DNA from: Mayamaea pseudoterrestris
Lineage: Eukaryota
NCBI GenBank assembly: GCA_027923505.1
Contig: BROI01000032.1
Span: 1-64,000 of the forward strand
Direction: 5' to 3'
Length of the DNA stretch: 64,000 nucleotides
Position 1 is the first letter of the stretch; each line of letters begins with the position of its first letter. The notes beneath the pieces were generated by a model, which saw only the letters and a program-made list of their open reading frames with translations, ran no database searches and was not told the DNA's origin. Of the stretch, positions 11,283 through 40,521 are shown in pieces. Both the position numbers and the translations under genes were made by a program.

Positions 11283-11534
11283 AATCAATTTGTTCAGTGC
11301 AATGGAAAATGTATGAAGGCTCCGGAGGATTTGTGAGGCGCTATGGATCGGCAATTGACCAAAATGAGACGCAAGGAACTCGAACAGGAAGGCTCGAAGA
11401 AAAATTGACAAAATGCACCTTTGGAGTTTAACATGACGTCCAAACCGAACCCCGCCGAGTCGAAGATAGTCTTCAACTTGAAGTAGGCGTCAACTGAAAC
11501 AGGATGCTGATGACAACCATCTGCAATCAGCACG

Positions 11535-11731
11535 TGTGCAGATTGCCCTCCGTCGCTCGGCTGCTTCTTTCCGCGGTGCACGGCCAAGGCCGGTCTAGCT
11601 GCCCAACAGGCGGCAGCGATGTCCATGTAGGTTGCGTATGCTATGTGACCCGGAAATCCGGGTCCCTGAGCAACCACGTCATCGATGATGACTGGCAGCG
11701 AGTCCTGTCTTGACAGGAGTCGCCTCAACCC
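11535..11731. repeat. Split direct repeat B2 (197 bp, 3' terminus of the YR element)
   Basis: Identical by eye to 11990-12186. Confidence 0.95.
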
Positions 11732-11746
11732 GGGTGGGTGGGTGGG

Positions 11747-11978
11747 ACAAACAAACAAACAAGCTGGCTAGACAACAGGGTTGGCAAGCAAGCAAGCAAG
11801 AGGAATGAGAGGCATCGGATGGGGATCGGCAACTTGGTCTGTGGTTGTCGGTCCTCCATTGATGTCGCATGTGACGTGTCCCGAACCATCGATGATGTGT
11901 ATCACTCAGAGTGTACTCATAAGGTATCTTATGAGTGTCCCCAAGGCAGTCTCCTCGAAGCATCCGCCCTGAGCCGGA
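11747..11978. repeat. Split direct repeat A2
   Basis: Matches 42592-42812 apart from 3 substitutions and an 11 bp insertion (tcgaagcatcc). Confidence 0.93.
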
Positions 11979-11989
11979 CAATCTGCACT

Positions 11990-12186
11990 TGTGCAGATTG
12001 CCCTCCGTCGCTCGGCTGCTTCTTTCCGCGGTGCACGGCCAAGGCCGGTCTAGCTGCCCAACAGGCGGCAGCGATGTCCATGTAGGTTGCGTATGCTATG
12101 TGACCCGGAAATCCGGGTCCCTGAGCAACCACGTCATCGATGATGACTGGCAGCGAGTCCTGTCTTGACAGGAGTCGCCTCAACCC
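11990..12186. repeat. Split direct repeat B1 (197 bp)
   Basis: Identical by eye to 11535-11731. Confidence 0.95.
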
Positions 12187-12465: not shown

Positions 12466-13767
12466 TTATAATAAAACTGCGCCTTCAATGGCTTTCATAG
12501 TGAGGCGTCCCACCTCGTGAGTGCTCTCCCGTAGATAATGTTGTACGGAGGGAGGCGACCACCGGAGACGGAAGGCAATCTCCTCAATGGAGAGCCCTGC
12601 GTTTTGTAGAGCCACGGCTGCTGTGACCCTATTAGAGTGTGCCACAATCCTGGTGATGTTGCTGCGCAAGTAATGTCGTTTGTCAGGATAGGCCCCGACG
12701 ACGGCCTGGCGCATGACTTTAATAATATCGCGTGACTGGAGGTACTCATACGCTCCTGTGGCGTCTTTGCGAAAGACACCCAGTGGCTCGAGTACAGGCT
12801 GTTTATGTAGTTGTTTGGCACGCTTCAAGATAGAGAGGCTGGCCGCGATAGGGCAGATGAAGGCGTGACCAGAACGGCGGAACCGGCGGATGGTGAAATT
12901 GTTCTGGCTCTTGTCATAGCGAAAGCGCAGGCGCAGCTCAAAAGTCTGAGTGCTATTTACCAAGAGAGCCGCATGTGACAAGAGTATATTATCCTTTGTG
13001 TAAAAGGTGAAATCAATGGCGACGAACGCCAGGGGTTGGCCGGCCCACTCGCCAGCATCAGCGTTAGCTGGCACTTTGCTGAAGCATCCCCGCTTTGCCG
13101 TAGTCTGAGCGTATTCGTTGGCTCGCGAACCTGTGAAAGCCCCCAGGCAAGTCCAATCAAACACTGCAGCGTCTATGTCGAGGGCGTGGCGCACGTCCTT
13201 GGAAGTCTGTTGTTTGAGCTTGCTGAACAAGTAACTGAACATTTCGTGTGTGTAAGGCTCTCGTTTTTCCCTCGCTTGTTGCCATTTGCGGCGGCTGGCA
13301 AGGATATCTGCCAAGACAGGATGAAGGCCTGAGCCGCGAGGGTCGTCGATGGAGAAGCGGCGATGAAGAAATGTTTCAAGGAGAGCGTGAGCGGCATTCA
13401 GGTAACCTACTAGAGTTTTCACCATGAGCGTCTGGTCAGGCTGGTTTGTTTCGCCCTTGGCCTTGCGCTTGTCAATCTCGAGTGAGGTTTCGCCTGCTGC
13501 CACTGCGTACAAGTAGCTGGCAATTACCGGGATTTCCTGCCCCGGTGCGATTTTACGGAAAGACTCGTCGTTGAATCCTGCCTTGAGGCTCCATTTTCCA
13601 AAATGCGAGGCTCTCTGGTCAAACGTGCGATCGTTTCCGGACCGTACATCGCCTCTGGGGCGGTGCCGTTGATTACTGATGAGATTGTTGTAAGCAGTCT
13701 GGATTCCACAAGGAAGACTTTGCAGGTCGCCAATGCCTGCGTTTCCAGCGTGATAACGGATGCCCAC
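12466..13767 (-). CDS. Tyrosine recombinase of the YR retrotransposon (start uncertain; overlaps RT/RH ORF by at least 244 nt)
   Basis: Catalytic set R (TGSRANEY), K (RYDKSQ), HxxR (AHSNRVTAA), W (LRWS), Y (VQHYLRE), plus ICPI before the C-terminal lobe. Confidence 0.92.
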   Translation of the reverse strand: MGIRYHAGNAGIGDLQSLPCGIQTAYNNLISNQRHRPRGDVRSGNDRTFDQRASHFGKWSLKAGFNDESFRKIAPGQEIPVIASYLYAVAAGETSLEIDKRKAKGETNQPDQTLMVKTLVGYLNAAHALLETFLHRRFSIDDPRGSGLHPVLADILASRRKWQQAREKREPYTHEMFSYLFSKLKQQTSKDVRHALDIDAAVFDWTCLGAFTGSRANEYAQTTAKRGCFSKVPANADAGEWAGQPLAFVAIDFTFYTKDNILLSHAALLVNSTQTFELRLRFRYDKSQNNFTIRRFRRSGHAFICPIAASLSILKRAKQLHKQPVLEPLGVFRKDATGAYEYLQSRDIIKVMRQAVVGAYPDKRHYLRSNITRIVAHSNRVTAAVALQNAGLSIEEIAFRLRWSPPSVQHYLRESTHEVGRLTMKAIEGAVLL

Positions 13768-16562
13768 GAGGCTGTCGAGGGTGTGAAGCGAGAAAGCCGA
13801 TCCGCCTCGACATTCGTCTTGCCGGGAATGTGGTTTGCCTGAATGCGAATGAACAGAGTGCTGTAAGTGATGAGTGCATGGAAGAACCTAGCCAGGCGGC
13901 GTACATGAGGCTTGTTGCAGCGAGCCGCGTGGCGCATCCATGATAGTGCTGAGGTGTTGTCTGCCAGAACGTTCAGGATGTGATGGTGGTGCCGTCGGAT
14001 GGGGCAGTTTTTGTACACTCCAATGGTGAGGACAACGTTGATAATGATGGCTGCAAACTCCAAGACGTTTATATGGTAATCATCATCGGTGAGAGGCCCA
14101 ATTATTGGGCGGTCTTGGACGTTGCGCGTGCGAAAGCCATGGACTGATAGGTCACCGTCGTGGAGACGCCACATGAATTCGAGTTCCACATTGAACGCAC
14201 CCACGCCTTTTGTGCTGGCATCACTTTTCAAGGTATTGGTGGGTTCACGCTCGACCATGAGGCCAATGGGTTTGCGCCAGATGTGTGCCCAAGCGGGGTT
14301 GTCGAGTGTATCGTGCAGCACTTGCAAATCAGCCAGGGCGCCCTCCGAAATTGCAACTCGAGCTGTGCGCCACCACCGCCGCAGCACTCGTTCTTGGCTA
14401 GGCGTAAGCCTGGATGTGCGAATGGAATGTTTCAATTTTGCATCTGCTTTTCGAGCTTGATCAGTGAGTGATTGCTGCAATCGAATGGACAAGTAGTCGG
14501 CTAAATCAGCCACCGAGCCCCCATGGCGCATGAGCCCTAAGATGGTAGCTTTGTCGGCAACTGGAACCAGAACCGTTTTTGGATGAAAGGCAAGTGACCA
14601 ATCGTCGCGCCAGCGATGCAGCATGTGCTTCAGTTTTTGTTGTTTCAAAAGCGGGAGGCCGACTTCCATGCGGCGAGAGTCCCAGTCGAGACCGAGGTAG
14701 TGTAATTGATGCGAGATGCGAGGCTGCCATTTTGCGGCGTTGATGCAAGCGCCTCTCCATTTGTCATTGACGTCGCCAAACACAATACTTGCCGCAATGA
14801 CACTGCGGTGGACGGCCTCTCTGATGTCTGGCCCTATGGCGGCCACGCCTTGGTCGTCGACGAAACTGGAGAAACCAAACTTGTAATCGGGACCGAGTAA
14901 TTTTCGTGTGCCTTGGTTGTAGCGGTCGCGTAGGGATTGACCAAACCCAGCGGACTCTGCGGCGGACGGCGGGTCGGAGAGAATAATATTGTCTGACAAA
15001 TCCGTAGTAGCTTGGCCGATGTCAAGGGTTGCCGCAATGAGGCTGCGCAACTCTCCCATTTTCATGTACCAGCCAGGGCAAGGTACGCCACCAAAGATTT
15101 GGCCGACGGGTATCACGAGCCATTTGTCAAGAACTGTACCAAACGCTACAGCAATGTCCGGATGGTAATGCAGCCAGCGGAATGCAGCTGAAATGTCGTC
15201 CGCGGCCATGTAGATTTCTTCGTGAGGGTGGTCGAGGCGTAAGTTCCACAAGAGTTTGAGCATGCGCGGGATGACAGTGCCATAATGGACCTTTGGGTTT
15301 TGTCGTTCGTCGTGGCCCTCTTTATAGAGCTTTGGCATCTGGCGATTGACGTTGCCGCGATCATCCGGATGGAGGGGTGTGGAAGGGTCGTTGATAAGGC
15401 GGCCTTCATCACCCAGCCGGCCTTCCTTGGGTGGAATGTAGGATAGTAGAGCGAGAAAGAGCCCTGGTACGTAGGCCCAAAGGAATCGCAGAAACATGAT
15501 ATGATAAGATAGTTTTTCCTCCTTGCGATATTTTTCCATGATGTTTATCCAGTCGGCCTCGAGGCCGCGGTTGTTTTCCTTCTCACGTCGAGCCACATCC
15601 TGGAATGGGCAGGTGAAGACGCTGCGAATGGGAACTCCCTCGGCTATGATGTGTTCTACGCCGGCAAAATCGACTGGTGGGTATCTTGGCGAAATCGATT
15701 TCTTGTGGAGTGTAGCGATAGCGTCGCGCAGTAGGGAGCGATCCTCGTTCTGGTGCGTATAGATGCCGCCTAGCCAACGGAGCAAGTCGCCGTAGTTGAA
15801 ATCGCAGCGTAAAAGTGCCGCGCCCATGTCGTAAACTCTGGACTCGTTAATAGCCGACATGTCTGTCTTTGGGTAGTAGCGCGGCTCGCGGAGATGCCAC
15901 AATGGTGTAGTAACAGCGTGGTGGCGCAAGGTCGCGTATCGATGTGTTGTGTCGTCGTTCAAAGCTGTCGCAATGTTATGTCGTTCCCGTGCGGTTAAAT
16001 AGCCCCAGGCGAGGTGCGTGAGGAGGTGCGGGGACGGAGCGTCATGCGAGGAGCTGATGTCAATCGATGCCTTTCCCCAGCCAAACATCCGTCGCCAGTG
16101 TATGCGATTGTCCAGTGGCAGTATGACTGTCGAGCCGTAAATGGGGTGATTGTGAAAGGGGTTTACTTGTCGCAAATGCATGACATCGAGCGGGTCTAGG
16201 AATTTCCAGACGTTTGCGAGTAACGTAGGCCAGTATGTAGTATCGTGTCGAACGGCTGGCTTTGGCGCTCTCTTTGGTGGTTTGCGACGTCGGCAGGAGG
16301 TGGCGGTGACGGGAAATGGCGGTAATTGTTCGCGTAATGTGCGTGCGCGAGCGATTGTCTCGGATGTGTGGGTCGCGGCGAGGACCGTCGCTTGTGGGCC
16401 GACCACTGGAGGCGGTCGAGGCGGTGTGGCGGGAGATGGAACGACTGCTGCGCCAGTCGCTGAATCGCCAGATGTATCTGTCCTGGTGGTTGCGTCGGTC
16501 GGCGCGGCGAACGGCGCCGCTGGCGGGCGCGCCGTAGTTGGCGAAACAGGAGTCGAGGCGAG
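13524..16562 (-). CDS. Reverse transcriptase-RNase H of the YR retrotransposon; frame is open up to the ORF1 stop
   Basis: RT motifs ADDISAAFR, IFGGVPCP, FVDD, HYLGLDWDS. DIRS-type RNase H motifs SDASTKGVG, HINVLEFAA, ADNTSALSW, HIPGKTNVEADRLSR. No stop between 16406 and 16562. Confidence 0.92.
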   Translation of the reverse strand, partial: LASTPVSPTTARPPAAPFAAPTDATTRTDTSGDSATGAAVVPSPATPPRPPPVVGPQATVLAATHTSETIARARTLREQLPPFPVTATSCRRRKPPKRAPKPAVRHDTTYWPTLLANVWKFLDPLDVMHLRQVNPFHNHPIYGSTVILPLDNRIHWRRMFGWGKASIDISSSHDAPSPHLLTHLAWGYLTARERHNIATALNDDTTHRYATLRHHAVTTPLWHLREPRYYPKTDMSAINESRVYDMGAALLRCDFNYGDLLRWLGGIYTHQNEDRSLLRDAIATLHKKSISPRYPPVDFAGVEHIIAEGVPIRSVFTCPFQDVARREKENNRGLEADWINIMEKYRKEEKLSYHIMFLRFLWAYVPGLFLALLSYIPPKEGRLGDEGRLINDPSTPLHPDDRGNVNRQMPKLYKEGHDERQNPKVHYGTVIPRMLKLLWNLRLDHPHEEIYMAADDISAAFRWLHYHPDIAVAFGTVLDKWLVIPVGQIFGGVPCPGWYMKMGELRSLIAATLDIGQATTDLSDNIILSDPPSAAESAGFGQSLRDRYNQGTRKLLGPDYKFGFSSFVDDQGVAAIGPDIREAVHRSVIAASIVFGDVNDKWRGACINAAKWQPRISHQLHYLGLDWDSRRMEVGLPLLKQQKLKHMLHRWRDDWSLAFHPKTVLVPVADKATILGLMRHGGSVADLADYLSIRLQQSLTDQARKADAKLKHSIRTSRLTPSQERVLRRWWRTARVAISEGALADLQVLHDTLDNPAWAHIWRKPIGLMVEREPTNTLKSDASTKGVGAFNVELEFMWRLHDGDLSVHGFRTRNVQDRPIIGPLTDDDYHINVLEFAAIIINVVLTIGVYKNCPIRRHHHHILNVLADNTSALSWMRHAARCNKPHVRRLARFFHALITYSTLFIRIQANHIPGKTNVEADRLSRFTPSTASWASVITLETQALATCKVFLVESRLLTTISSVINGTAPEAMYGPETIARLTREPRILENGASRQDSTTSLSVKSHRGRKSR

Positions 16563-18575
16563 TCAAGAGCTTATGAGTCTCGTGTATGCCTCAGTTGGGA
16601 GCAGTTTTTCTTTGACTCTGTCTCGATTAAGGAAGGTTGTCACTGGAGCGAGTGAAGCTCTTGTCCACATGGTTGGATTTGCGCGAATATTGATCTCGCA
16701 ACGGCGGCATGCTGTAGCGTTGCAGCCCCTCATGCCGGCGACAATGAACGGAAAGCATATCTGTGCGTTATTAACAACTGGGACGCGGATGTCTTGTCTT
16801 GTCAAGTCATTGAGGATTTGGCGAATGCTGGCCATGGTAGGTTCGGCGTTGCCAACACAAGTTATCAAGGCAACTGGCAATTTTCGGTACGTACCGTTAT
16901 CGGGCTGTGGATGTTGCTGGGGATGTTGACGCGCCGGTTGCTGGGCTGGCTGTTGTCCACTGTGTCCTGGCAGCTGGCGTCCTGGCTGTTGGTGAGGCGG
17001 CTGGAATGGTTGCTGTCGAGCCGGCAGCACGTATGGTGGCAATGGCCGACTGTACAGAACGGAGGATGGCGGCGCTGTCGAGGTAAAGACAGTGACGTTG
17101 AACGCTGCTGTGCAGTCCTGGCGCCAAGTCGCCAACTCTTCCTTTAAAGGCTTCCAATCGCGCATCCGGATAGAACTGTCGAAGGCTGACACGTCGGATC
17201 GCTCAGGGTACGCCCATAGGAGCACAGGGACGCAGTGTTCCTCGGGGAAGTAATTCTGTGACCAGTCAATGAAGATTTTAAAGAGCCGTTGTAGTGCGAC
17301 TAGTGTAGCCTCTGTAGCGCGGAGTTTGTTTCCGGCGGGAAGGCGTGTCCACGCCTGTTGGGTCGGATGATGCGTGAGTAAATCAATTAGCCAAAACAGA
17401 TGTCCCGCCATTGGTGAGGCAAGTAGGAATGGTGACAGCTCGGAGCTGATCTCTCTGAGCTTGCGGAAGCGGGAAGGGAAGTGGAATATTAAGTGGATCC
17501 ACCAACCCATGTTTCTGATTAGCTGAGCGAGCTGGGCGGGCGCGAAACCGTCCGCCGGGAGTCGGAAGGTGCCATTGCTGGTGATAGTAGTGATGAAGTG
17601 GAATGGCGTGATGCAACTGGTAAGGTTTGAGGCGCTTAGTGTTTCGCCAGTGCCAATGGCTCCAGTTTGCAGCGCCCGCAAGTGATCATTGCCGCGGAAG
17701 AACGCATCGCTCTCGAAAGATGGGCGGAAGCAAGTTGGAAAGGTGGAATGGGATGCCGCTTCGAGCTCGTTTGCAATGTACAGGCCCGCCTGCTGTGTTT
17801 CTTGTTGCCCTTGCTTTCCAGAGAGGACGTTAACACAATAAGCCTTGCTGATGATTCCCGGCAAGAGGAGGGCGTAATTTTCGTAAACGCCCTGACTGGT
17901 GTCCTCAGACGGTGGGCCCATCCGGATTGTTGGAGGGACGGCGTATGCGCCAAAGTGGGCCAACTGGCTCATAGCCGCGGTGAGTGATCCGCCGATATAT
18001 TTTTCGCGAGAGAACATGTTTGGATCATCAATCTGGTCGACCGTGGGGATGAGGCAATGTCCGACTGGATGGCCCTTTGTAGGCTTGTTACCGGGGAAAT
18101 AGGGGCCTAGGCCCGTTCGTTCTTGCTCGTATGGCAGATATATGCCAGATGTACTGAATGGCTTATTATTAGTGTGATCCTTGTGCTGGCGCAGCTGGAC
18201 GCGCGGTGGTGTCGCCGGGTGTGTGGGCGGCTTTCTGACGTCTGTAACTTCCACCGAGCCATCGCTATCACTCCAGCGTTCATGTTGGTGATAGTGCAGC
18301 TTTTTGGCGAGGCTGGAACCCTCCGCTTTCCGTTTGCGTTCCTGGGCTATCCAATCTGGTTCCTCTCTGGGGCGGCTGTCGTGGCCGGTTTGTCCGGACG
18401 GGTGCGCGGCCTGTTGCTCGGCATGGCGCTTGACCAGTGAAGGGCTACTTGCTTGCGACTGGAAACGCTCCCGAATCATATCCGATAATAGGTCTGTAGG
18501 TGGGGGACGACGGCGCTCCTTGTCGGCAGTTGCCGGAGTCTGTCGTTGTGTTTGGCTGGTCTTGGAAACAATTTC
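16563..18575 (-). CDS. 3' part (670 aa) of the gag-like ORF1 of the YR element, cut off by the copia insertion
   Basis: Joins in frame with 41065-42531 after removing the copia dimer and one TSD (..EDLSQL|EIVSK..). Q/P-rich tract and C-terminal Cys cluster CFPF..GCNATACRRC. Confidence 0.85.
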   Translation of the reverse strand, partial: EIVSKTSQTQRQTPATADKERRRPPPTDLLSDMIRERFQSQASSPSLVKRHAEQQAAHPSGQTGHDSRPREEPDWIAQERKRKAEGSSLAKKLHYHQHERWSDSDGSVEVTDVRKPPTHPATPPRVQLRQHKDHTNNKPFSTSGIYLPYEQERTGLGPYFPGNKPTKGHPVGHCLIPTVDQIDDPNMFSREKYIGGSLTAAMSQLAHFGAYAVPPTIRMGPPSEDTSQGVYENYALLLPGIISKAYCVNVLSGKQGQQETQQAGLYIANELEAASHSTFPTCFRPSFESDAFFRGNDHLRALQTGAIGTGETLSASNLTSCITPFHFITTITSNGTFRLPADGFAPAQLAQLIRNMGWWIHLIFHFPSRFRKLREISSELSPFLLASPMAGHLFWLIDLLTHHPTQQAWTRLPAGNKLRATEATLVALQRLFKIFIDWSQNYFPEEHCVPVLLWAYPERSDVSAFDSSIRMRDWKPLKEELATWRQDCTAAFNVTVFTSTAPPSSVLYSRPLPPYVLPARQQPFQPPHQQPGRQLPGHSGQQPAQQPARQHPQQHPQPDNGTYRKLPVALITCVGNAEPTMASIRQILNDLTRQDIRVPVVNNAQICFPFIVAGMRGCNATACRRCEINIRANPTMWTRASLAPVTTFLNRDRVKEKLLPTEAYTRLISS

Positions 18576-18580
18576 CAACT
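18576..18580. repeat. Left target-site duplication CAACT
   Basis: Same 5-mer at 41065-41069, directly outside the outer LTRs. Confidence 0.95.
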
Positions 18581-19123
18581 TGCTTGAGATCCAAGATGAA
18601 GGTCCGTACGGAAGTAGGGAGAAAAGACGGTTTAAACGCTAAAAGACTGGGGAAACTTTGAATCTATTGTTAGTAGATCCTCTAGAATGAGACGAAAGTG
18701 AAGCGGTCGATTTCGCATCCAAGAGTGGCTTCTCATTCATACGTATGTATATTGTCTACCGGTCGTGTCATTTTGTACTGGCCATCCCGTAGGCGGGATG
18801 GCTCTCGTCCGTCTACAGAATTGGCAGTATAGTCTTCACTGCTGGTAGTGTTTGCACGGCTTCGCTCTGTAGAGGCCCAACATTCGCTGTGTACGCCGGT
18901 TCCGGTATTCGATGTACCTGTGGTAGTCTTTCTACGGTTGTCAGTCGTGAATTCTTCGGGTACGGTGAAGTGTGTAGGGTTTGGGCCAGTGGCTGACTTT
19001 CTACTCTCGCCGTCGTAGGAGTGTGGTCGTGAACGGGATGTTCCGTGTCTTGGTGCCGCTGAGACCGTGTCGATGTCCTTTTCAATGTTGCTTTGTTCGT
19101 CGGCCAAAACGGGGATCCCAGCA
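18581..19123 (-). repeat. 3' LTR of copia unit 1 (543 bp)
   Basis: TGCTTGAGATCC...GGATCCCAGCA; four copies in the window. Confidence 0.97.
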
Positions 19124-22100
19124 CCCTTCCCTTGGAGAGCGATGGCTTCAGGCATTGAATCCATCTTGTAGTACTCATCCTCTCCAACTAGGATCCGTGC
19201 ATGGCGATTGAAGGTAGAAAGGTCCAAGTTCTTGGTGAAGATGTCGGCAGTGTTCTTCTTGGTTTCAATGTACTTGACAAGGAGGATGCCGTGTTCTTTG
19301 AGCTCTCGAGCGAAGTTGTGGCGTACGTCAACATGGCGTGTGCGCCCTCCTGTCTTCCAGCTGTTGATGATGTCGATTGCGCCGCTGTTGTCCATTTCCA
19401 GGACCATTGGCAGTTGGACTTTGAGGCCTATTGACTGAAGAATGGCATGTGTGTGAAGCATGTCTTGTATGACGTCGGTACCTGCGGACATTTCGGACTC
19501 AGTTACTGAAAGGGAGACATGTTTCTGTAGGCGGCAAACTTCGGCGACGGGAACGCCTTCAAGGTAGGTGATGCCACCGGAATGACTCTTGTGCTTGTCG
19601 GGATCCTTGGCGTAATCTGAATCGCTTCTGGCGCTGATGATAAAGACGTGGTTTGGGCCGGTATACTCGCGGTTTGGGAGGAACAGTCTGCCTCTCTTTG
19701 GTGTTGCACACATGTAGCGGATGGCTCGGTACATGGCTTTCTCGTGGGCTTCTTCTCCCGTCTTCATGGCTCGGCATAAGTCATTTATGGCGTAGAGTGT
19801 CTCTGGTCGAGACCATCGGGCGAGGTAAAGTAGTTTGCCTAGGCCTTGTCGAAGGGTCGTCTGCTTGTTGTTGCTTAGGGCGGAAGGATCGCCTTCTTTG
19901 ACGCATGGTAGCACCGTCCCGGGTTGAGCAGGAACGCATGCCTCTTGGCGTTTCGGCGGAGGGATTGTAAACTCGTCTTGTAAGCTTTGTAGGAGGACTG
20001 GTTGCGTCCATCGCATGTAGTTTTCGCCTCGTTCAATCTTGCAACCGATGTACTCGTCCATTGGTCCACCGTCTTCGCCGTCAAAGTGCTGTAGAAGTTG
20101 TTTCTTGGTGTCTTCAATCATGTCTGGAGGGCCGCTTAACAGGAGATCGTCGATGTGCGAGACGATGTGCATGTGGCGGTCGCCATCTTGTTTGTAAAAC
20201 AGGCAAGGGTCGGCAACGCTCCGTTCAAATCCTATTTGTCGAAGTGCTTTGACCAGTTGGTCCCAGAACGCTCGCGCAGCTTGTTTAGTTCCGTATAGCG
20301 TGCGCTTGAGTAGCCAAACGTGATTGGGTGGATAGTCGTCTTGGAAACCTTCAGGTATGTGCATGTAACACTCGTGGCCTTCGTCAAACGTGCCGTAGAG
20401 GAATGCTCCGCTTATATCGAAGATGTGTGGCTCGTATCCCATCATGATGGCAAGAGTTGTGACAATCTTGATGGACGTTGGCGATGCTACTGGAGATGAG
20501 ATCTTGTTGCTGTCGTAATGGATTCCGTCTTCTTGTTCGTAGCCTCTTGCTGTGATTCGTGCTTTGTATGTGCCGTTTGACTTCTTCTTGAGCACCCACT
20601 TGCTTGTCATGCACTTTGTTCGAGGTGGTATCATGCTGCGTGAAACGACTTGGAATGTGCCGTGCTTGATGAGGTTGTCCTTCTCTTTGCGAATTGCCTT
20701 GATCCATTCGGGACGCTCTGGACTGCCCATGGCTTGCTTGAACTTGATCGTATGCAACTCTTCTGTGTTGATGAATCCGCCTCCAATGCCTGCTCCAACG
20801 CACGCAAACTCTCCGAGTGTGGGAATGGGAGACGCGTCGTAGAAGATGCTTGCACTAGACGGCGTGCTGGGCATGTCGCGGAAGAAGTATTCAAAGGTGG
20901 AATTCGTGGGCTCGTTCGGTGGTTCGCTTGTCTCGTCGAGGTTTAAATGGATTTCTGCAGGGATCAAGTCGGCGCTATGGAAGCTTTGTTGATCTTCATG
21001 GTCATTTTCTTGTTGGTATGGCGAATCATGGACGGATGTATGTGTGTCGTCGAGAATCGTTGAAGAGGGAACGTGTAGGAGATCGGCCATGATGGCAAGT
21101 TGTTCTGGCGGTAGATCGATTTGCTGGTTTGTCGACTCGTCGCTTTCGTCTTGTGTCTCGGTGACTAGTATAGATGTTTTATCTTCATGGTCATCTGGGT
21201 TGAAACCCTTCCCGAGTTGAAGAGTCGGGCTGCAAACGTTGGAGACTCGAGTCGTGATCACTGTTTCGATAGACGCTTGAGGTGCGGCTGGTTGAGGTGC
21301 GGGACGTCCATTTGCTTGGGTGAGCTCTTCTTCATATTCATCGTCGTCTGCATTAATGTCCCACAGCTCGATTGCTTGACTGTCTCCTGCACTGCTATGG
21401 TCGTCGGCTCTTGGGACTAAGTCGGGTATGGAATCATTTAATGATACGGAGTCGTCGTCGCGCTCGTGTGATGGCTCGTAGGCAGCTTCGTAACGTTGAT
21501 CTTGTGTAGGCAAACAGAAACTATCTTCGTTGCCCCATAGTTCAGGAGCTTCGCTGTCACCTGCGCTGCTGTAGTCGTCATTTCGAGGTACCAGAGGAGG
21601 TATGGACCCGTTCGATGAGACTGATTCTTCGTCTTGCTGGTCGTCATATGGTCGGTGGTGGAATTCTTGCTCGTCAGACTCGCAGTACTTGTTATATTCT
21701 GATTCAGCTGATCGGTCACTGTCATAGCCGTTGTCGCATGCGTTGTATAGTGTTGTGCGATTGCCGAATCGTTCGTCGAGTGCGGCAAGTATGGCGGCGA
21801 ATGTTGCAGGATTGGTCGGATCGAATCGAGTTGGTGTTCTTGTTTCTCGCGTGGTGCGACGCAGGCCACCAGGATTTGATCGTGTGGAGCGTGTAGATGA
21901 TCTTGAGCTTTGCGATCCTCGTGAGTGATTTGATGAGAATCGAGCGATGTGTCTTTGAATTGCGTTTGCTTGGCGATCGGCGATTGTAGTATGCGCTCTT
22001 GGAGATTGAGGCGTATTGAGTATGTCTGTTCCTTCTTCTTGCGCGCTTGTTGGTGCATTCGCATTTGGGTGGTATATTGTAAGTGCAGTTGGATTGAAGG

Positions 22101-25100
22101 TGTCGGGCGCTGATTGGATTGAGTTTGTTGGTGAGGCTTCCGATGCTTCTGGAGTGTCATGGTCAGTCAGATCAATCAGCGAGGTAGATCGTGTCAGGAT
22201 GCGCTTTGTATGGAACGTTGGTTTCTTCTTGTTCTTGTCGTCTGGAGATTTCGCGGGTGGCGGCGGCAAATTCCCATGGTGATGCGGTGAGAAAAGACTG
22301 CTGTAGTTGCTGCTGCAGGAAATGACGTCAATGAGTGGTGTAGTGACGATTTCGTGACGCGGGGGCTTAGGTTGAAAGTACGGTCGGTGAAGAAATGTGA
22401 CGTCCTTGACGTCATGTACGCGATTGGTCTCGGGATTGAAGACGCGATAGCATCTGCTCGGGTGATTTTTGCTGTAGCCGACAAAGATGCCTTGGAATCC
22501 TTTTGGTGCTAGATGAGACTTTAATCCGGATATCACGACAGTGACTGCTTCGCCGTATGGATGTAGATTCTTGATGATGGGCGACTCGGTGCCGTAGAAG
22601 TGTTTGAATCGAGTTGCTAGAGTGCTCTTGTGCTCGACGATAGCAAGATTGTCCATGTCAGTTGAGTATTCGAAGGCAGATGGTGCCAAATGAAACCGAA
22701 TTGAAGGTGGAATGTTTTGAGCTGTAAATATGGCTCGCGTGCGATTAGTGAGCGTCGGGAATCCAATTTCGACAAGACTGTTTTGTTGCGGGGTGTCTCT
22801 CGCAGTCCATTCGATCTCGATCGGCAATTTCCAAGCGGAGCTCTTCATTGACTTGGCTAATGCTTGGTTCTCTCCGGCGTTGTCCATTCGAAGGTATTTG
22901 ACTGTAATGCCGCGTTGGATGAGATAGTAGAGCATCTGGCATGTCGGCTCAACGATTTCCCCTTTGGTGCGGTACATGGCGCTGTGCTTGTAGCCTGTCG
23001 CTTCGTCGACAATGAGTTGCCATTGCGGTTGTATGGAGGAGAATCCAAGTTCTGATTTGCTCTTCATGACTCTAAATGAAGAGAGGTCCATGTAAAGTCG
23101 CTCGCCTGGCTCTGTGGCTCGGATGCGCGGCGATATTTGAGGGACCGGTTGCTTCTTGGCCTTGCCTATTGCGCAGGCAACACACTTGTTCTTGGACGAT
23201 CCGTGTATTTCCCATCTAAAGTGCTTGGCAATTGCGAGTGTCATTTGGGGGCTTTGGTGTCCACACAGTTCGTGCATTTGTTTGTAGGAGAGACGGCGTG
23301 TCGGAAGCAAGTTGGCTGCAATCATGGCGAACTCGTTACGAGGCGCTTGAACTAATGGCATTGGAATGACTCGTCTCAAGTACATGCAGTAAAGATGACC
23401 TCGCTTGGTAGGAATCAGCAAGTCGAAGACGATGGAGTGTTGGTTTTCTTTCTCTAGCCAAATCTTCTTGTTGCCGCTGCGGAGGTTCCATCCTGTCGCT
23501 AAACGTTGAGTGATGCTGAACAGATTGAAGGCGCAGTCGGGCGCGTAAGCAACGTTGTTGAGGACTCCTTGGTAGAGAGGATTGCCAAATCGATCGCAGG
23601 CGTCGACGCGAAGCTTCGCCATGGTTTGAATGTCGGCGACTGTTTGATTTCCCATTGTGATGCCTTCATTTCGTATCTGACGGGCATCGAACAGGCCTTC
23701 TGGATGAGGTGTACAGTCGACGGTTGCTGCGGTATCGCCGATGAAGATTTCAGGATGCTTCAGGATATCCAAGTTGGTTGGACACGTAATGGATTCGTGG
23801 ATAGTTGCGAGGGCGAATTCGTTGTTGTTGTTGTTTCTTCGAACCGCGTAGGCATTGGCGCTTACGTTGTATCTCAATGCATTGAATGGATTTGGGCTTT
23901 CGTGTTGCAGTTGATTTGAATTGCGAGCTGGAGGCTGGTATCTGCGTGCGCGTTGCTCTGCTGCTTCGCGTGCGTCTCTTGCCTCGCGTTCTGCAAGGAG
24001 GTCTAGTAGTTCCTGTCGTTCTGCTTCTCTCTCGCTTTCTGGAAATTGATCGAGGTAGTTGAAAGTCGTTAAGTCTTTGCTGAATTCCAAGCCGACGTTG
24101 CGGAGGTCTTCTTCTAGTGTGCTGCGCGTTCGCAATGTTCCTTCGAGTGCTCGTCTTTTGACTTCCTTGGCAATTGCATGATCGATGACGACTTTTAAAC
24201 GTTCGTCAAACAGTGCTTCCTCGTCTTCTTCATTGATTTCTTCGAACCAGAAGATGAGATCCTTGAGGAAACGCCTTTGGCTGAAACGTTCAAGCATGCA
24301 CAGTCGTGCGGCGCTTGCAGGGTTTGTCTCGATGTCTTGCTCATCCTTCTTTATTTGTTGGATGGTGGTTTCGTAGCGCGCTCGAGAAACGACATGCTCA
24401 GGCGCTTGATTGCGGTGTTCCCAGGATTGAAGAAAAGCTTGATAGCCTTCATAGGTGAAGGAGTCTGATCCGTAACTTTGACTGCTTGGGTATGCATCTG
24501 AATCGTAAGTTGCGTCGTCTGAATTGGTTTCTTCGTCGCCAGGATTGCTCATGATGATTTCGACTCGCTCTGTATCCCAGACTCGAAGACCGGTGTATTG
24601 GTAGTAGCGGTCTCGCGTTGAGTCAATTGCTTCTTGATGCGTAAAGGCGTGTGGCATGGCTATGTGCTCGAGAAAGAACTCTTGTAGATCTGCAAACATC
24701 ACTTTTACGGCGTCTGACAGCTCGTATAGTGGAGGGTTGATGAACAGGACGCTTTGCAAGACGTGGAATGGCGGTAGATCACTCGAGTTGGCTTGTGGCG
24801 GAATGTTGTTTGGAATCCTTGGAGCAAAGGTTGGATACAAGTGCTCGACTTCTTTTAGCTCGTCTGCTGTGAGGAAGTCTTTGGGTAGCCAGTCTCCTCG
24901 CCATTGCGCAAAGCTTGTCGCTACGAGTTCTTCTACACTTTCTTCTTCTTTCAATTCAATTGGAGGACTTGTTGTTGGAGTTGAATCTTTGTCGGCGCTG
25001 CAAGTTGTGACGTTGTCGGTGCGCTCATGTGTGTCGCATTCGTTGGCGTTTGTGGTTGTTGGCTCAAGATTAGTGGCTTCAGTTGTGTCGCTGCTCGTTG

Positions 25101-27129
25101 TGACGTTATTGGTGCTTTGCGTAGCGTCGTAGACGTGGTAGGAGTCGTTGAGGTTGTTTGCTTGCTCTTCAATTGATGAGTGCACTTGTTGCTCTGATTT
25201 ACTTGGCTCGTCTTGTTTGTGGAATGGCAGACCCTTCCCGTCTTCTTGCTTCGTTTGCTCAAGTGTTTCAATGTTTTGAATTAAAGTGCTGAAGTGTCTC
25301 CGTTCTTGCTCGGTTGGAGTCTTGTTGTTGACAAACTCGTCTTCAAAGTCGCTTTCTTCTTCATCACTTGTGCTTGGGTCGCCGCATATGGATGCCCAAC
25401 TGCGTCCTTTGAGATTTGACGATGGAAGATTTGGCTTTGGCTTTGGTGACTCACTCGTTGTGGACAACTTTGTTAAAGGCACCAATTCGACGGCTTGCTT
25501 CTTGTTGGTGGAGCTTGACGTTGGTCTTGCGCGTTTCGTTCGAGTTGTTGGTGGTGCTGGAGGCTGCTCGATTGATGAATCGTCTTCCGATGAATAGTCT
25601 TTAATCTGATGTGGCTGTAGACCGCGCCAGTTGGTTTGTGGGTATAAAGGCGACGGTGTTGGAGCTGCAGGAGTGCGGGTAGGGAGTGCTGGATAAGTTT
25701 CATCAACTAAGTCGGCATGTATGAAGGCAAATTCGCTCCTTGAGTTTGTAGAAGGATAACGGCGGCTTGAAGAGGAACGTTGCGAAGAGGAACGATGCGA
25801 TCGCTGAGTCAACTGAAGGGCTTCGTGTACTGCTGCAAGTCCTTGTTCGAGTAGTAATGGCGCTTGACGAGGCACTTGTTCGCGCATGATGGTTCGCGGG
25901 TGAGGCTCTTGACGATGGTTTTGATGATCAAGTTGGCGCGGTTGCTCTTGTTGATCTCGGCGACGATAATCATTGTCTCTTGGTTGGTCTCTTGCGCGCT
26001 CGTTGTTGCGATTCTGTCGATAACGACGGTCTTCTTGCTGATCATCTTGTGGAAGACGACGATCTTGCTGTCGATTTGAATTGCGAGGACGCTCTCTTGG
26101 TCGTTCTAAACCACGCTCTTGTTGCTCTCGTGCTTCTTCATCTTCCAATTGACGACGAGCTTCGATTGACAAGCGAGTGTTCCATCCTCGAGGACGACGG
26201 TGGGCGTTTTCGACTCGTTCAAAGCAGTCGGCGCTTCGATGATACGGTTGATGGCAAAGGTAGCATTTGAATGATGGTGGATTTCGCGTGTTGTTATAGT
26301 TGGTTTGCGGGCGTTCATTGCGAGTTGGCGGCGCTTGATGCTGACGAGTGTTTTGTTGGCGTGAAGTTTCTTGTTGCGGCGGTTCTGGTTGTGCTGCATA
26401 TAGAACAATCTCGTTGACTCCTTGTATTAAAGCTTCTTCATCTTCTGCTGCGTAAATCGTTTGGTAGATAGTCGACACGACGCCCTCCATTTCGGTCTTG
26501 GTCAGGGCGCGTTGCTTGGTCTTTTGCTCTTGCGCTAAAGCGAGGCAGTATTGAGGCGGCAGCTTGTTCATGAGCGTAGCCATCAGGTCTTCTGCAAGAA
26601 GCGTTTGGTTGAACTTGATGGCTTGCGATTGCATGAGGTCGATGAGGTCTTGAGGGTTTGCTGTTGGTCGTTCGAGCTTGAGATTTTGAATGCTTCGTCG
26701 GTAAAGTGTTGGCGCCATGAACTTGTCTGGAGAAAACTTGATTTCCAATGCGTTGATAACCTTCCAAGCTTCGCCTCCTGGATACTCTGTTGATTCTGCT
26801 CCGACAAGATGGTCGTTCAACTCGGGGAATGGCGACAATGCGATGGAAAGCATTTGCATGAGCGTTTCATTCTGCTTGCGTTCCGCTTGTTTGTTTCGAA
26901 TGATTTGGATTTCGTCTGCTGTTGCGTTAGCTGCGGGATCAGTAATGACTTCATTTTGAGTAGCTGGTAAGTGCTCGGGTCGACTGCCTCTTATAGGACG
27001 GCGGCAGCCTGCAATTCTTGCATGATTCTTGAACTGGTTGAACCATGATGGAAAGGCTTCGATGGTGTTGGTTATCTTTGGCGTTTTGTAGAGCGCATTC
27101 ATAGTGATGTCTTCTTGTTGGTCGGTCAT
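18733..27129 (-). CDS. Copia Gag-Pol polyprotein (2798 aa), unit 1
   Basis: Zinc knuckle CYLCHQPYHRSADC; protease IGDTAAT; integrase HELCGH..CVAC, YMD, RMDNAGE, PQQNSLVE, GIFVGYS; RT KARITARGYEQ, FDISGAFL, LYGTKQAAR, HIDD; RNase H DSDYA, TESE, DNSGA, ADIFTK. Confidence 0.97.
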   Translation of the reverse strand: MTDQQEDITMNALYKTPKITNTIEAFPSWFNQFKNHARIAGCRRPIRGSRPEHLPATQNEVITDPAANATADEIQIIRNKQAERKQNETLMQMLSIALSPFPELNDHLVGAESTEYPGGEAWKVINALEIKFSPDKFMAPTLYRRSIQNLKLERPTANPQDLIDLMQSQAIKFNQTLLAEDLMATLMNKLPPQYCLALAQEQKTKQRALTKTEMEGVVSTIYQTIYAAEDEEALIQGVNEIVLYAAQPEPPQQETSRQQNTRQHQAPPTRNERPQTNYNNTRNPPSFKCYLCHQPYHRSADCFERVENAHRRPRGWNTRLSIEARRQLEDEEAREQQERGLERPRERPRNSNRQQDRRLPQDDQQEDRRYRQNRNNERARDQPRDNDYRRRDQQEQPRQLDHQNHRQEPHPRTIMREQVPRQAPLLLEQGLAAVHEALQLTQRSHRSSSQRSSSSRRYPSTNSRSEFAFIHADLVDETYPALPTRTPAAPTPSPLYPQTNWRGLQPHQIKDYSSEDDSSIEQPPAPPTTRTKRARPTSSSTNKKQAVELVPLTKLSTTSESPKPKPNLPSSNLKGRSWASICGDPSTSDEEESDFEDEFVNNKTPTEQERRHFSTLIQNIETLEQTKQEDGKGLPFHKQDEPSKSEQQVHSSIEEQANNLNDSYHVYDATQSTNNVTTSSDTTEATNLEPTTTNANECDTHERTDNVTTCSADKDSTPTTSPPIELKEEESVEELVATSFAQWRGDWLPKDFLTADELKEVEHLYPTFAPRIPNNIPPQANSSDLPPFHVLQSVLFINPPLYELSDAVKVMFADLQEFFLEHIAMPHAFTHQEAIDSTRDRYYQYTGLRVWDTERVEIIMSNPGDEETNSDDATYDSDAYPSSQSYGSDSFTYEGYQAFLQSWEHRNQAPEHVVSRARYETTIQQIKKDEQDIETNPASAARLCMLERFSQRRFLKDLIFWFEEINEEDEEALFDERLKVVIDHAIAKEVKRRALEGTLRTRSTLEEDLRNVGLEFSKDLTTFNYLDQFPESEREAERQELLDLLAEREARDAREAAEQRARRYQPPARNSNQLQHESPNPFNALRYNVSANAYAVRRNNNNNEFALATIHESITCPTNLDILKHPEIFIGDTAATVDCTPHPEGLFDARQIRNEGITMGNQTVADIQTMAKLRVDACDRFGNPLYQGVLNNVAYAPDCAFNLFSITQRLATGWNLRSGNKKIWLEKENQHSIVFDLLIPTKRGHLYCMYLRRVIPMPLVQAPRNEFAMIAANLLPTRRLSYKQMHELCGHQSPQMTLAIAKHFRWEIHGSSKNKCVACAIGKAKKQPVPQISPRIRATEPGERLYMDLSSFRVMKSKSELGFSSIQPQWQLIVDEATGYKHSAMYRTKGEIVEPTCQMLYYLIQRGITVKYLRMDNAGENQALAKSMKSSAWKLPIEIEWTARDTPQQNSLVEIGFPTLTNRTRAIFTAQNIPPSIRFHLAPSAFEYSTDMDNLAIVEHKSTLATRFKHFYGTESPIIKNLHPYGEAVTVVISGLKSHLAPKGFQGIFVGYSKNHPSRCYRVFNPETNRVHDVKDVTFLHRPYFQPKPPRHEIVTTPLIDVISCSSNYSSLFSPHHHGNLPPPPAKSPDDKNKKKPTFHTKRILTRSTSLIDLTDHDTPEASEASPTNSIQSAPDTFNPTALTIYHPNANAPTSAQEEGTDILNTPQSPRAHTTIADRQANAIQRHIARFSSNHSRGSQSSRSSTRSTRSNPGGLRRTTRETRTPTRFDPTNPATFAAILAALDERFGNRTTLYNACDNGYDSDRSAESEYNKYCESDEQEFHHRPYDDQQDEESVSSNGSIPPLVPRNDDYSSAGDSEAPELWGNEDSFCLPTQDQRYEAAYEPSHERDDDSVSLNDSIPDLVPRADDHSSAGDSQAIELWDINADDDEYEEELTQANGRPAPQPAAPQASIETVITTRVSNVCSPTLQLGKGFNPDDHEDKTSILVTETQDESDESTNQQIDLPPEQLAIMADLLHVPSSTILDDTHTSVHDSPYQQENDHEDQQSFHSADLIPAEIHLNLDETSEPPNEPTNSTFEYFFRDMPSTPSSASIFYDASPIPTLGEFACVGAGIGGGFINTEELHTIKFKQAMGSPERPEWIKAIRKEKDNLIKHGTFQVVSRSMIPPRTKCMTSKWVLKKKSNGTYKARITARGYEQEDGIHYDSNKISSPVASPTSIKIVTTLAIMMGYEPHIFDISGAFLYGTFDEGHECYMHIPEGFQDDYPPNHVWLLKRTLYGTKQAARAFWDQLVKALRQIGFERSVADPCLFYKQDGDRHMHIVSHIDDLLLSGPPDMIEDTKKQLLQHFDGEDGGPMDEYIGCKIERGENYMRWTQPVLLQSLQDEFTIPPPKRQEACVPAQPGTVLPCVKEGDPSALSNNKQTTLRQGLGKLLYLARWSRPETLYAINDLCRAMKTGEEAHEKAMYRAIRYMCATPKRGRLFLPNREYTGPNHVFIISARSDSDYAKDPDKHKSHSGGITYLEGVPVAEVCRLQKHVSLSVTESEMSAGTDVIQDMLHTHAILQSIGLKVQLPMVLEMDNSGAIDIINSWKTGGRTRHVDVRHNFARELKEHGILLVKYIETKKNTADIFTKNLDLSTFNRHARILVGEDEYYKMDSMPEAIALQGKGAGIPVLADEQSNIEKDIDTVSAAPRHGTSRSRPHSYDGESRKSATGPNPTHFTVPEEFTTDNRRKTTTGTSNTGTGVHSECWASTERSRANTTSSEDYTANSVDGREPSRLRDGQYKMTRPVDNIHTYE
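19124..19133 (-). other. Polypurine tract (AAGGGAAGGG) abutting the 3' LTR; second copy at 30366-30375
   Basis: cccttccctt on the plus strand directly next to the LTR boundary. Confidence 0.85.
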
Positions 27130-27137
27130 GGTTGCGA

Positions 27138-29141
27138 TTAGAATGTGTAGTAAAAGTTTTGGCTATTGGTCGGACGTTGATAGCTAACGTTGTTGTCGGC
27201 GAATGGAGATTGACGGTTTGGGGTAGCTAAACGTTGCTGACGTGGCCAATTGAGTTGCTGATGTGACGGAGTTTGAAAACGTGAACGAGCGTGGAACTGC
27301 TGAGCGTGTTGATCGCGACGATGGACACGTTGTTGATTTGTCACTTGTCGATTTCGTTGAGCTTGTAAGTGCAGCTGTCGTTGTTGTTGATTAAGAAGAT
27401 GATTTAAACGAGTTACTTGAGCTTGAAGACTGTTTATATCGCGTGTATGATGAGTTGTAGTGTTGCGCGTGTCGTTGATGCGAGGCTGGACTCGAAGGGT
27501 TGGATTGGAGGTTCGGTTTTGCTGTCGGGTTGGCGTGACGATTCGATTCGCTTGTTGCTGTCTTAAACGCTGCTGGTAAGGACGATTGCTGTTCGTTTCG
27601 TTGCGTCGTTGATTGCGTCTTTGACTAACAGTGATTCGATTGCGTTGAAGATTGATCGAAGCTTGTTGCGTTGTTGATGCGCGCTCTTGACTTGCTTGTC
27701 GCTGTCCGTTTCGTTGTTGAAAGAGTGCTTGACGACGGTCTTCGACGCTTTGAACTGCTGCGATGCGAGGTGCTTCTTGGTAAGTGCTTGAAACGTTCTG
27801 TGAGCGAAGAGTTTGTTGCGATGGTCTCGTGTCTTGGCGATGCGCTTGTCTAACTGGCGCTTGATTTGCTTCTTGTTGGCGAATTGAATTGATTGATCGG
27901 CAAGTATGCGTCGTGCTTGTTGGCGATGTCTCTAATTGCTCGTTGACTGGCGATGAGTTGCTGCTTGGCGAGGGTACGTGTGTTTGCGTATTGGCGATGC
28001 ACACAGAACAAGCGCACGTCGTCTCTGTGTTTATATCTGGTACTTCAGAAAGTCTTTGCAAGTCTTGACGTCTGTTTTCTTCGTCCTTTTGAAGCAGGAA
28101 ACGAGTCTTCTTGAGGAAGTAAAGAGTTACTGGATGCGATAGGTCTTTTGCTTCGAATTCGTCTCGCTCGTTGCGCAAAGTGTCTTCTAGTAGAAGAATC
28201 TCCTTCTCTTCGGGCGTGAAAGGATTGTTCGGTCGGCAAAGATCAAGGCTCTTGTAAAAGTCTGCTCGCTTTTCGTCAAGGAAGATTAATGACTTTGGAG
28301 AAAAGATGAAGGCTTTGAGAAAGGGTACGTTGCTGTCGATGTAACTTGTTTCGACGCCTGATTGTGCGGTTGACTCGGCAACTTTTGCTAATCCTTCTTC
28401 TTTGAATTCTTCCGCAATGTGACTGTAAAACACTTCGTTGTTGGCAAGGTCTTTAAACTGATTGAAGCGCTGCTCACAAGCTTGTTCCGGGTCGATTGGC
28501 TTTGATGAAGGCGGCGGTAGAATGCCTCGAAAGATCCAGGCGAAACGCTTGTCTTCTTCGTCCCAAGTCCAAGGGGTTGGAGGAGAGACGCGCGGGTCGT
28601 AACGATACCAGCCGTATCGAACGTTCGGGTGGTTGTAAACTGCTTTCTCTTCGTCAGTGGCGGGTCGTCCAGTTAGATGCCAGTCTTCGGGGTTGTTTGG
28701 TGAAAGACGACGAAGGCTGTCGCGTGGGTTGTACTCGGTTGGAAGTCGCTCTCGTTCTTGATTGCTTGCAATTTGATCGGCGGCGGTAAGTCGGATTACT
28801 GGGCGGCCTTCTGGAGCGACCGATTGAGGACTTGAAGGGTTGAACTCGTGTAAAGTAATGTTGGTGAAGAGGACGACGACTTGTAGAAGGCGTCGTGAAG
28901 AATTAAAGACTTGGCGGCTTGTGTTGAAGCGGCGAAGGAAACTGTAAAGAAGGCGCGTGACTTGTGGAGTGAGAGGCGACTTGAAAAGAGTGCTCGGCAG
29001 ACTAGGTAAAGTAGTTCTGCTCAACTGATGGAGACTTGAAATCTGCTCGACGACGTTGGCCTTGATCAAACGCTTGATCCGACTCGAGGTAAACTGAAAG
29101 ATAAAGGCAAAAGGGTCGCTTGTAGGCTTGCTCTTGCTCAC
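27138..29141 (-). CDS. Extra upstream ORF0 of the copia element (667 codons, no AUG; non-AUG start unknown), unit 1
   Basis: 2004 nt open frame ending 8 nt before the gag ATG; no Met codon. Aromatic/charged central region, CxCxxC, and a Q/R/N-rich basic C-terminal part. Confidence 0.7.
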   Translation of the reverse strand: MSKSKPTSDPFAFIFQFTSSRIKRLIKANVVEQISSLHQLSRTTLPSLPSTLFKSPLTPQVTRLLYSFLRRFNTSRQVFNSSRRLLQVVVLFTNITLHEFNPSSPQSVAPEGRPVIRLTAADQIASNQERERLPTEYNPRDSLRRLSPNNPEDWHLTGRPATDEEKAVYNHPNVRYGWYRYDPRVSPPTPWTWDEEDKRFAWIFRGILPPPSSKPIDPEQACEQRFNQFKDLANNEVFYSHIAEEFKEEGLAKVAESTAQSGVETSYIDSNVPFLKAFIFSPKSLIFLDEKRADFYKSLDLCRPNNPFTPEEKEILLLEDTLRNERDEFEAKDLSHPVTLYFLKKTRFLLQKDEENRRQDLQRLSEVPDINTETTCACSVCIANTQTHVPSPSSNSSPVNEQLETSPTSTTHTCRSINSIRQQEANQAPVRQAHRQDTRPSQQTLRSQNVSSTYQEAPRIAAVQSVEDRRQALFQQRNGQRQASQERASTTQQASINLQRNRITVSQRRNQRRNETNSNRPYQQRLRQQQANRIVTPTRQQNRTSNPTLRVQPRINDTRNTTTHHTRDINSLQAQVTRLNHLLNQQQRQLHLQAQRNRQVTNQQRVHRRDQHAQQFHARSRFQTPSHQQLNWPRQQRLATPNRQSPFADNNVSYQRPTNSQNFYYTF

Positions 29142-29279
29142 TCAATACTCCGCTTGTTGCTGCAGAGCTTTGGAAATTCGAGGTTGACAGAAAGGGCTTG
29201 AAGAAATCCGCGTCCGGTTTTGTTCAATGCTTTGGAAACTTGGTAAAAAGATCTTGGTTCAATCGGCAAGTAATTACTT

Positions 29280-38371: not shown

Positions 38372-38379
38372 GGTTGCGA

Positions 38380-40383: not shown

Positions 40384-40521
40384 TCAATACTCCGCTTGTT
40401 GCTGCAGAGCTTTGGAAATTCGAGGTTGACAGAAAGGGCTTGAAGAAATCCGCGTCCGGTTTTGTTCAATGCTTTGGAAACTTGGTAAAAAGATCTTGGT
40501 TCAATCGGCAAGTAATTACTT

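Follow-up and report, generated by a model that had tools for sequence, protein, structure and literature searches.

Recoding signals set protein ratios in compact retroelements and are well mapped for retroviruses and long terminal repeat (LTR) elements, but hardly for tyrosine-recombinase (YR) retrotransposons. The retroviral readthrough site consists of a UAG-G with a pseudoknot 8 nt downstream. Among termination contexts, a UGA with C in the next position is the leakiest, and it recurs in the type II motifs (UGA-CGG, UGA-CUA) of alphaviruses and tobraviruses and in cellular UGA-CUAG sites. Here, we analyzed a YR retrotransposon whose layout fits the Ngaro type, located on the minus strand of a 64,000-nt stretch of DNA from Mayamaea pseudoterrestris (assembly GCA_027923505.1, contig BROI01000032.1, positions 1 to 64,000; hereafter the window), in which a single in-frame UGA-C stands between open reading frame 1 (ORF1) and the frame encoding the reverse transcriptase (RT) and RNase H (RH).

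For fungal Ngaro elements, the sections of one report covered here indicate that the YR frame can overlap the RT frame in another phase (PMC3783388). Neither readthrough in YR retrotransposons nor a conserved in-phase UGA-C is mentioned in the covered sections of the literature searched (PMC8547959, PMC3783388, PMC6681497, PMC3266345, PMC3537659); the primary Ngaro description lies outside this scope, so that an earlier report is possible. In the covered sections of a further article, 'read-through' is used only of transcripts (PMC12440569).

A single in-phase UGA-C between ORF1 and the reverse transcriptase frame

On the minus strand, positions 16565-16563 form a TGA which is followed by C at 16562, in the context ..ATA AGC TCT TGA CTC GCC TCG... 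Upstream of this codon, an open stretch of 691 codons between two stops runs from 16566 to 18638; downstream of it, the frame is open from 16562 to 13527 (1012 codons), where it ends in a TAA at 13526-13524. Both frames share one phase across the single TGA, and the first in-frame ATG past it is the 128th codon (16181-16179). The stop with its context, the shared frame and the first ATG had been pointed out in an initial inspection of the letters of the window (hereafter the sequence-only reading), and the sequence, the coordinates, the phase and the first ATG were all verified. Of the 691 upstream codons, the uppermost 21 consist of the LTR of an inserted Copia element and of its target duplication (see below), leaving 670 codons that form the 3' part of ORF1 (16566..18575, minus strand), an open frame with a conserved Cys-rich C-terminal module at its end. 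Judged by the relatives of the element, the presence of one in-frame stop joining the ORF1 and RT frames is far beyond chance.

Conservation of the stop in related families

Relatives were gathered by scanning an alignment of eight RT sequences over metagenome contigs, which returned 285 pattern matches, 57 of which encode relatives with an RT identity to the window of 29-40% (best segment). The analysis covered 47 of these 57 loci; left out were L009, L010, L021, L034, L035, L039, L043, L048 and L051, in which the RT match lies 125 nt or less from the contig end, and L047, in which the N-terminal part is missing. At 80% nucleotide identity over the junction, the 47 loci and the window formed 33 clusters.

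Going upstream from the RT homology, the first in-frame stop encountered was a TGA in 43 of the 47 loci and a TGA-C in 34 of them, corresponding by cluster to 31/33 and 24/33, respectively. On this basis, the minus-strand UGA at 16563..16565, with its +4 C, is the proposed readthrough site of the window element. At least 100 codons are open upstream in the same frame in 23 of the 33 clusters, all of which carry TGA and 19 of which carry TGA-C. The upstream frame spans 1050-1219 open codons in eight clusters (L004, L019, L026, L030, L033, L040, L041 and L057), and in three further clusters, which are truncated, it is open as far as the contig start. Moreover, of 30 informative clusters, 23 preserve the phase between the two frames, compared to the one third expected (p = 1.5e-6). 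With respect to the encoded protein, the stop has a constant position, directly after the C-terminal module of ORF1, whose end reads ..KALTPSTxW[S/T/P]* in one group of families and ..P[S/T]xAF...L*L in the group of the window (..PTEAYTRLISS*LASTP in the window itself). Conservation is seen at the level of the place, the identity and the +4 base of the stop codon.

As a control, the terminators of the RT frames themselves were determined in 27 loci and were found to be TAG in 17, TAA in 7 and TGA in 3; since the RT frames end mostly in TAG or TAA, the TGA at the junction does not reflect the usual stop preference of these elements. The codon following the junction stop was variable in the 31 clusters considered (CTC 6, CAT 5, CAG 3, CTA 2, CGC 2, CGG 1, and others), the window having CUC. 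Fused ORF1-RT proteins, or proteins with a sense codon in place of the stop, were absent among the best 150 of 1149 representative matches, the longest of which measures 1203 aa and in which the RT match begins by residue 457 at the latest.

Taken together, the alignment of related families came out in favour of the programmed readthrough proposed by the sequence-only reading, as the stop (TGA in 31/33 clusters), the phase (in phase in 23/33) and the +4 C (TGA-C in 24/33) are kept in relatives. We consider it likely that the polymerase of this family is produced through programmed readthrough, the leaky UGA-C that closes ORF1 being bypassed now and then. In this model, most ribosomes starting at the ORF1 AUG would terminate at the UGA and release an ORF1 protein of ~1160 aa. 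A minority would decode the UGA with a near-cognate tRNA, cross an AUG-free, disordered linker of ~110 residues and continue into the RT/RH domains, generating an ORF1-RT/RH fusion of ~2170 aa. The expected outcome would be a high ORF1-to-polymerase ratio, like that of retroviral Gag-Pol. The occurrence of readthrough, its efficiency and the residue inserted at the UGA are what we infer from these comparisons. With respect to the fusion of about 2170 aa suggested previously, the arithmetic holds (1159 + 1 + 1012 = 2172) once the Copia sequences are removed, whereas the copy as it stands is split.

The linker and the start codons after the stop

The sequence following the stop (16221..16562, minus strand; ~114 codons) would encode a Pro/Ala/Thr-rich linker, which contains no ATG and is predicted to be disordered, with a predicted local distance difference test (pLDDT) score of ~30 for residues 1-112. 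Homology of the relatives, as determined by tblastn, reaches residues 78-113 of the RT frame of the window, and thus lies upstream of its first Met. Across the clusters, the first ATG past the stop varies in position from +5 to +233 codons, and in 14 of 33, including the window (127 versus 114 codons), it is found beyond the start of the RT homology.

In protein-guided comparison of pairs of relatives, linker substitutions were more frequent at third codon positions, the counts at the first, second and third positions being 22/16/58 for L005/L053, 14/14/30 for L019/L016 and 23/28/63 for a third pair. In a nucleotide alignment of one group, third-position changes made up 60% in the first 60 nt after the stop.

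The frame downstream of the stop

The 1012-codon frame and its TAA (13524..16562, minus strand) were analyzed by structure prediction. In the AlphaFold model obtained (pLDDT 78.8), residues 1-112 are disordered and the folded part begins at residue ~113, and Foldseek matched this model to the protease-RT of foamy virus and to the RTs of CaMV (cauliflower mosaic virus), Ty3 and MMLV (Moloney murine leukaemia virus), with a probability of 1.00 and E-values from 1.6e-7 to 1e-6. Based on this predicted fold, the frame is identified as a reverse transcriptase with RNase H of the LTR-retroelement type. At the sequence level, the RT frame gave nothing significant in Pfam (E up to 0.01 and up to 10), and a PDB sequence search with the RT profile returned no match. 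The frame ends ~140 residues past the DNTSA motif of RNase H; this end portion has no Pfam match, which is not proof that a methyltransferase-like domain is absent. Likewise, no Pfam match to a protease or to a DDE integrase was obtained in the frames of the YR element. Its nearest protein matches are annotated as hypothetical, and their source assigns them to the diatom Mayamaea pseudoterrestris.

Points against readthrough and rival explanations

Several observations weigh against the readthrough model. To begin with, 7 of the 33 clusters depart from the pattern (L001/L002, L008, L012, L038, L016, L027 and L052). In L008, ORF1 ends in TAA and lies in a different phase, and in L001/L002 a TAG-C is followed by five codons and then by an in-frame TAA ahead of the RT frame (L001 572-593; L002 3472-3493); L016, L027 and L052 are decayed or too short. 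On re-reading of four of the seven, L012 and L038 proved to carry the canonical TGA-C in phase behind the ORF1 module, with an indel or an extra nonsense codon occurring further on. The ORF1 of L001/L002 has 1118 codons, and its end could represent either a double stop or a decayed copy. Furthermore, the relatives were gathered via two RT motifs and represent one clade, not all YR elements.

The linker provides evidence in both directions. Over 23 clusters and 2331 codons, it holds no stop in frame 0, compared to 50 and 78 in the other two frames; it is thus kept open, which speaks for readthrough, although part of this difference is built into the criterion by which the junction stop was chosen. 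Two of the four groups showed no third-position bias in the first 120 nt after the stop (32-40%). Coding constraint just past the stop is weak or not measurable there, which is expected for a disordered linker, and also for untranslated sequence.

The downstream RNA of the window element also belongs here. The GC-rich inverted repeat which the sequence-only reading had put forward as a 3' signal (16500..16534, minus strand) has the described arms (CGGCGCG at 16534-16528 and CGCGCCG at 16506-16500), and these are paired in the minimum-energy fold, but the fold is no better than that of shuffled sequence. The 129 nt from the stop gave a z-score of -0.78 relative to dinucleotide shuffles (41/200 shuffles being as good), and the 100 nt after the stop gave a z-score of -0.63. 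The inverted repeat is not significant and, therefore, the analogy to the 3' structure of gammaretroviruses fails for the window element.

The best-surviving alternative, though in our view an unlikely one, is that RT/RH is expressed separately, by internal or non-AUG initiation, by reinitiation, or from a subgenomic or spliced RNA, the shared phase being a functionless leftover. In line with this explanation, an ATG is present +5 to +20 codons past the stop in L006, L026, L030, L040 and L041, gene callers give free-standing RT proteins of ~850-950 aa, and the linker evolves fast, with little third-position bias in two of the four groups. Separate expression does not, however, require the phase that is kept in 23 of the 30 informative clusters (p = 1.5e-6), and in 14 of the 33 clusters no ATG precedes the conserved residues. 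In addition, it leaves unexplained the preference for TGA-C, which is absent at the terminators of the RT frames.

A second alternative, which we regard as very improbable, places the stop within a spliced intron. This corresponds to the public gene model P0007 (1864 aa, 12466-18480), which begins within ORF1 just beyond the Copia insertion and joins ..PQPDN to AAPFAAP.., thereby omitting ~120 codons around the TGA. As this model is annotated at the very locus under study, bridging the stop by one intron and the phase change from RT to YR by a second one, it counts among the points against readthrough. On the other hand, the omitted part corresponds to the most conserved module of ORF1 (BLASTP with L026, E 0.001; conserved alignment columns), third-position-biased substitution extends right up to the stop, and neither the conservation of phase nor the stop-free frame 0 would be needed if the stop were spliced out. 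P0007 rather looks like a gene predictor stepping over the stop. For annotation, this means that the public model bridges the stop and the phase change by introns at the cost of excising the best-conserved segment of ORF1. The annotation of related copies divides them into separate genes lying next to each other, and these splits, like the introns of P0007, are probably prediction artefacts.

More improbable still is a specific decoding of the UGA, by selenocysteine insertion or by reassignment of the codon in the host, instead of leaky termination. The sole point in its favour is that the codon is always UGA. A search of 11000-19000 on both strands returned 0 Rfam families, the selenocysteine insertion sequence (SECIS) included, at E up to 1. 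Only one TGA occurs in the 2172 codons of the element and none in the adjoining 2809-codon Copia frame, so that TGA is a stop in this genome; moreover, the site is located at a domain boundary beside a disordered linker.

Finally, the alternative raised by the sequence-only reading itself, namely that the TGA arose by nonsense mutation in this copy alone (e.g. CGA to TGA at a CpG), would suit a copy already dead through the Copia insertions and a C-to-T change at CpG, which the preceding T and the following A fit, but is refuted by the TGA found in the equivalent position in 31 of 33 clusters with RTs only 29-40% identical, the 183-nt contig under another organism label (16494-16676; see below) likewise showing no difference.

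RNA structure after the stop in related families

For the 100 nt following the stop, the mean z-score was -0.86 over the representatives of the 33 clusters. In seven families (L003, L017, L022, L028, L044, L046 and L054), the z-score was below -2 (-2.2 to -5.0), compared to 0 of 32 upstream and 1 of 33 far-downstream control segments (7/33 versus 1/65, Fisher p = 0.002), and in several of the seven a strong hairpin begins 7-17 nt past the stop. A 3' structure shared between families was considered and rejected, the consensus fold of three related strong-hairpin families being weak (-10.6 kcal/mol).

The six TGA families without a +4 C fold more strongly than the 25 families with C (mean z-score -2.45 versus -0.50, one-sided Mann-Whitney p = 0.015). 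From this small sample comes a hint that the +4 context and the RNA structure can stand in for each other.

The ORF1 protein

In contrast to what the label 'Gag-like' implies, which the sequence-only reading had applied to ORF1 and which rests on its position, no recognisable Gag, capsid or CCHC fold was found by Pfam, by PDB fold searches or in the protein atlas. ORF1 has no significant Pfam family at E up to 0.01 or up to 10, its predicted model reaches a pLDDT of 60, and the best Foldseek match has an E-value of 0.8. The best VIA-align match (Z 5.2, root-mean-square deviation 6.3, 135 aligned residues) is generic helical, and the protein atlas gave no usable match.

ORF1 nevertheless has a conserved helical core, as profile-profile comparison of the group of the window with the metagenome families gave a probability of 97% (E 4e-11, 241 columns). 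The C-terminal module, encoded at 16566-16900 in the window and present as well in L002, L004, L019, L026 and others, reads roughly C-F-x-S-C ... C-x4-C ... R-L-H-I-D-L-S ... W ... P-E-x-Y-W; this Cys-rich module is not of the CCHC type and has no Pfam or PDB match. The remainder of the ~1100-aa protein is fast-evolving. Pairwise BLASTP between ORF1 and distant families was weak (L026, E 0.001, C-terminal module only; L019, not significant), and only profile comparison gave a clear relationship across distant families.

The recombinase frame and a second change of phase

A third frame of 473 codons (12466..13887, minus strand) lies in the -1 phase relative to the RT frame, which it overlaps by 361 nt, and has its first Met at residue ~155. 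Residues R255, H417-x-x-R420, W443 and Y451 are invariant in 12 sequences, and the profile of this frame matches residues 269-317 of Cre recombinase, i.e. its catalytic end, with an E-value of 0.0011. The single-sequence Pfam match to Phage_integrase has an E-value of 0.067 and is below threshold. Judged by its R ... H-x-x-R ... [H/W] ... Y catalytic set, the third frame is identified as a tyrosine recombinase.

In 23 of 27 loci, the YR frame occupies the -1 phase with respect to RT/RH and the two overlap by ~300-500 nt; the first ATG of the YR frame often comes after conserved residues. Some 120-240 nt ahead of the RT stop, the codon-position signal leaves the RT phase and takes up that of YR. 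A canonical X XXY YYZ slippery heptamer is absent in 9 of the 16 families examined, the window included, and is scattered elsewhere, with no common position. The conservation of this -1 frame in the absence of an AUG suggests a second expression step, which may be a further recoding event, or splicing.

Layout of the element and state of this copy

The overall organisation, A1 - ORF1 - RT/RH - YR - B1 A2 B2, fits that of an Ngaro-type YR retrotransposon. All of its parts are located on the minus strand. At the 5' end, the terminal repeat A1 (42592..42799) shows 98.6% identity over 208 nt to A2 (11747-11954), and at the 3' end, the repeat block (11524..12186) consists of B1 (12186-11979), A2 (11954-11747) and B2 (11731-11524), B1 and B2 being identical at 99%. 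The 5' part of ORF1 (41065..42531; 489 codons, with its ATG at 42531) is an open frame that ends at the Copia insertion site. Its phase matches that of the 3' part, and the homologue P0003 (1035 aa) is colinear across the junction; before the insertion, ORF1 comprised 489 + 670 = 1159 codons. Without Copia, the YR element has a length of ~8.8 kb.

The two parts of ORF1 are separated by two tandem Copia LTR retrotransposons on the same strand (18581..41064), which are foreign to the YR element and were recognised by self-BLAST of the window, where 18575-29822 matches 29817-41064 at 99.97%. This 22.5-kb insert contains four copies of a 544-nt LTR, two per element, and each Copia element has an intact 2809-codon frame encoding gag, integrase (IN), RT and RH, in this order. 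The target duplication AGTTG is found at 41069-41065 and at 18580-18576. The two elements may have come to lie in tandem by a very recent duplication, or their arrangement may be an artefact of assembly.

Because the two Copia insertions split ORF1, this copy is dead and cannot make the ORF1-RT/RH fusion; the stop site itself is intact. Among the contigs of four sequencing runs, one of 5051 nt in each of two runs covers 13559-18575 with 24 differences, none of which is at 16563-16565 among those listed; this comparison gives no copy numbers and, as the differences listed are a part only, is not proof of identity at the stop. In another of the runs, a 183-nt contig matches 16494-16676 of the window without any difference, the stop included. 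That run carries a different organism label within the same study, and the identity may be due to an element common to both, to a close relative or to carry-over.

Elsewhere in the window, a tandem satellite is present at 48083-54460, with a period of ~347 nt and 17-18 copies of 64-99% identity to the reference copies.

Comparison with known systems

Overall, these results indicate a UGA-C kept across dozens of families whose RTs are ~30-40% identical to that of the window, thereby constituting a natural set of contexts for readthrough, some followed by a 3' hairpin and others not. As a tentative extension, which we hold to be possible rather than probable, the families might form a large undescribed clade in diatoms and other aquatic protists that would make three proteins from one RNA by two successive recodings. 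A mostly structure-independent readthrough of UGA-C after a giant, non-Gag-like ORF1 would be followed by a -1 shift, without a canonical heptamer, ~120-240 nt before the RT stop, to generate an ORF1-RT/RH-YR polyprotein, and families without a +4 C would compensate by a strong hairpin just past the stop.

Compared to the Ngaro-type elements (order DIRS), the window element is alike in the order of its genes (ORF1, RT/RNase H, YR), in its split direct repeats (A1 ... B1 A2 B2), in a YR frame that overlaps the RT frame in another phase and in giving no match to a protease or a DDE integrase. In contrast, its ORF1 of ~1050-1220 aa has no recognisable Gag, capsid or CCHC fold, and its RT is too diverged for the Pfam RVT models. 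The assignment to the Ngaro type is a fit based on layout, that is on the split repeats and the gene order, and not on an RT or YR tree.

With the Gag-Pol of gammaretroviruses (murine leukaemia virus) and of some LTR retrotransposons, the element would share a single in-frame stop ahead of the polymerase, which has no separate start, and the presumed purpose, a low ratio of polymerase to structural protein. It differs from them in having UGA-C with no significant 3' structure in the window, and across the families a stable fold is found in only 7 of 33 and is not shared between them. Furthermore, the integrating enzyme is a tyrosine recombinase, which is reached by a further -1 phase change. 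The UGA-C type II sites are distinguished from the junction described here by the codon after the stop, which is variable in these families (CUC in the window), and are alike in having a UGA with a +4 C and, in most families, no need for a large structure.

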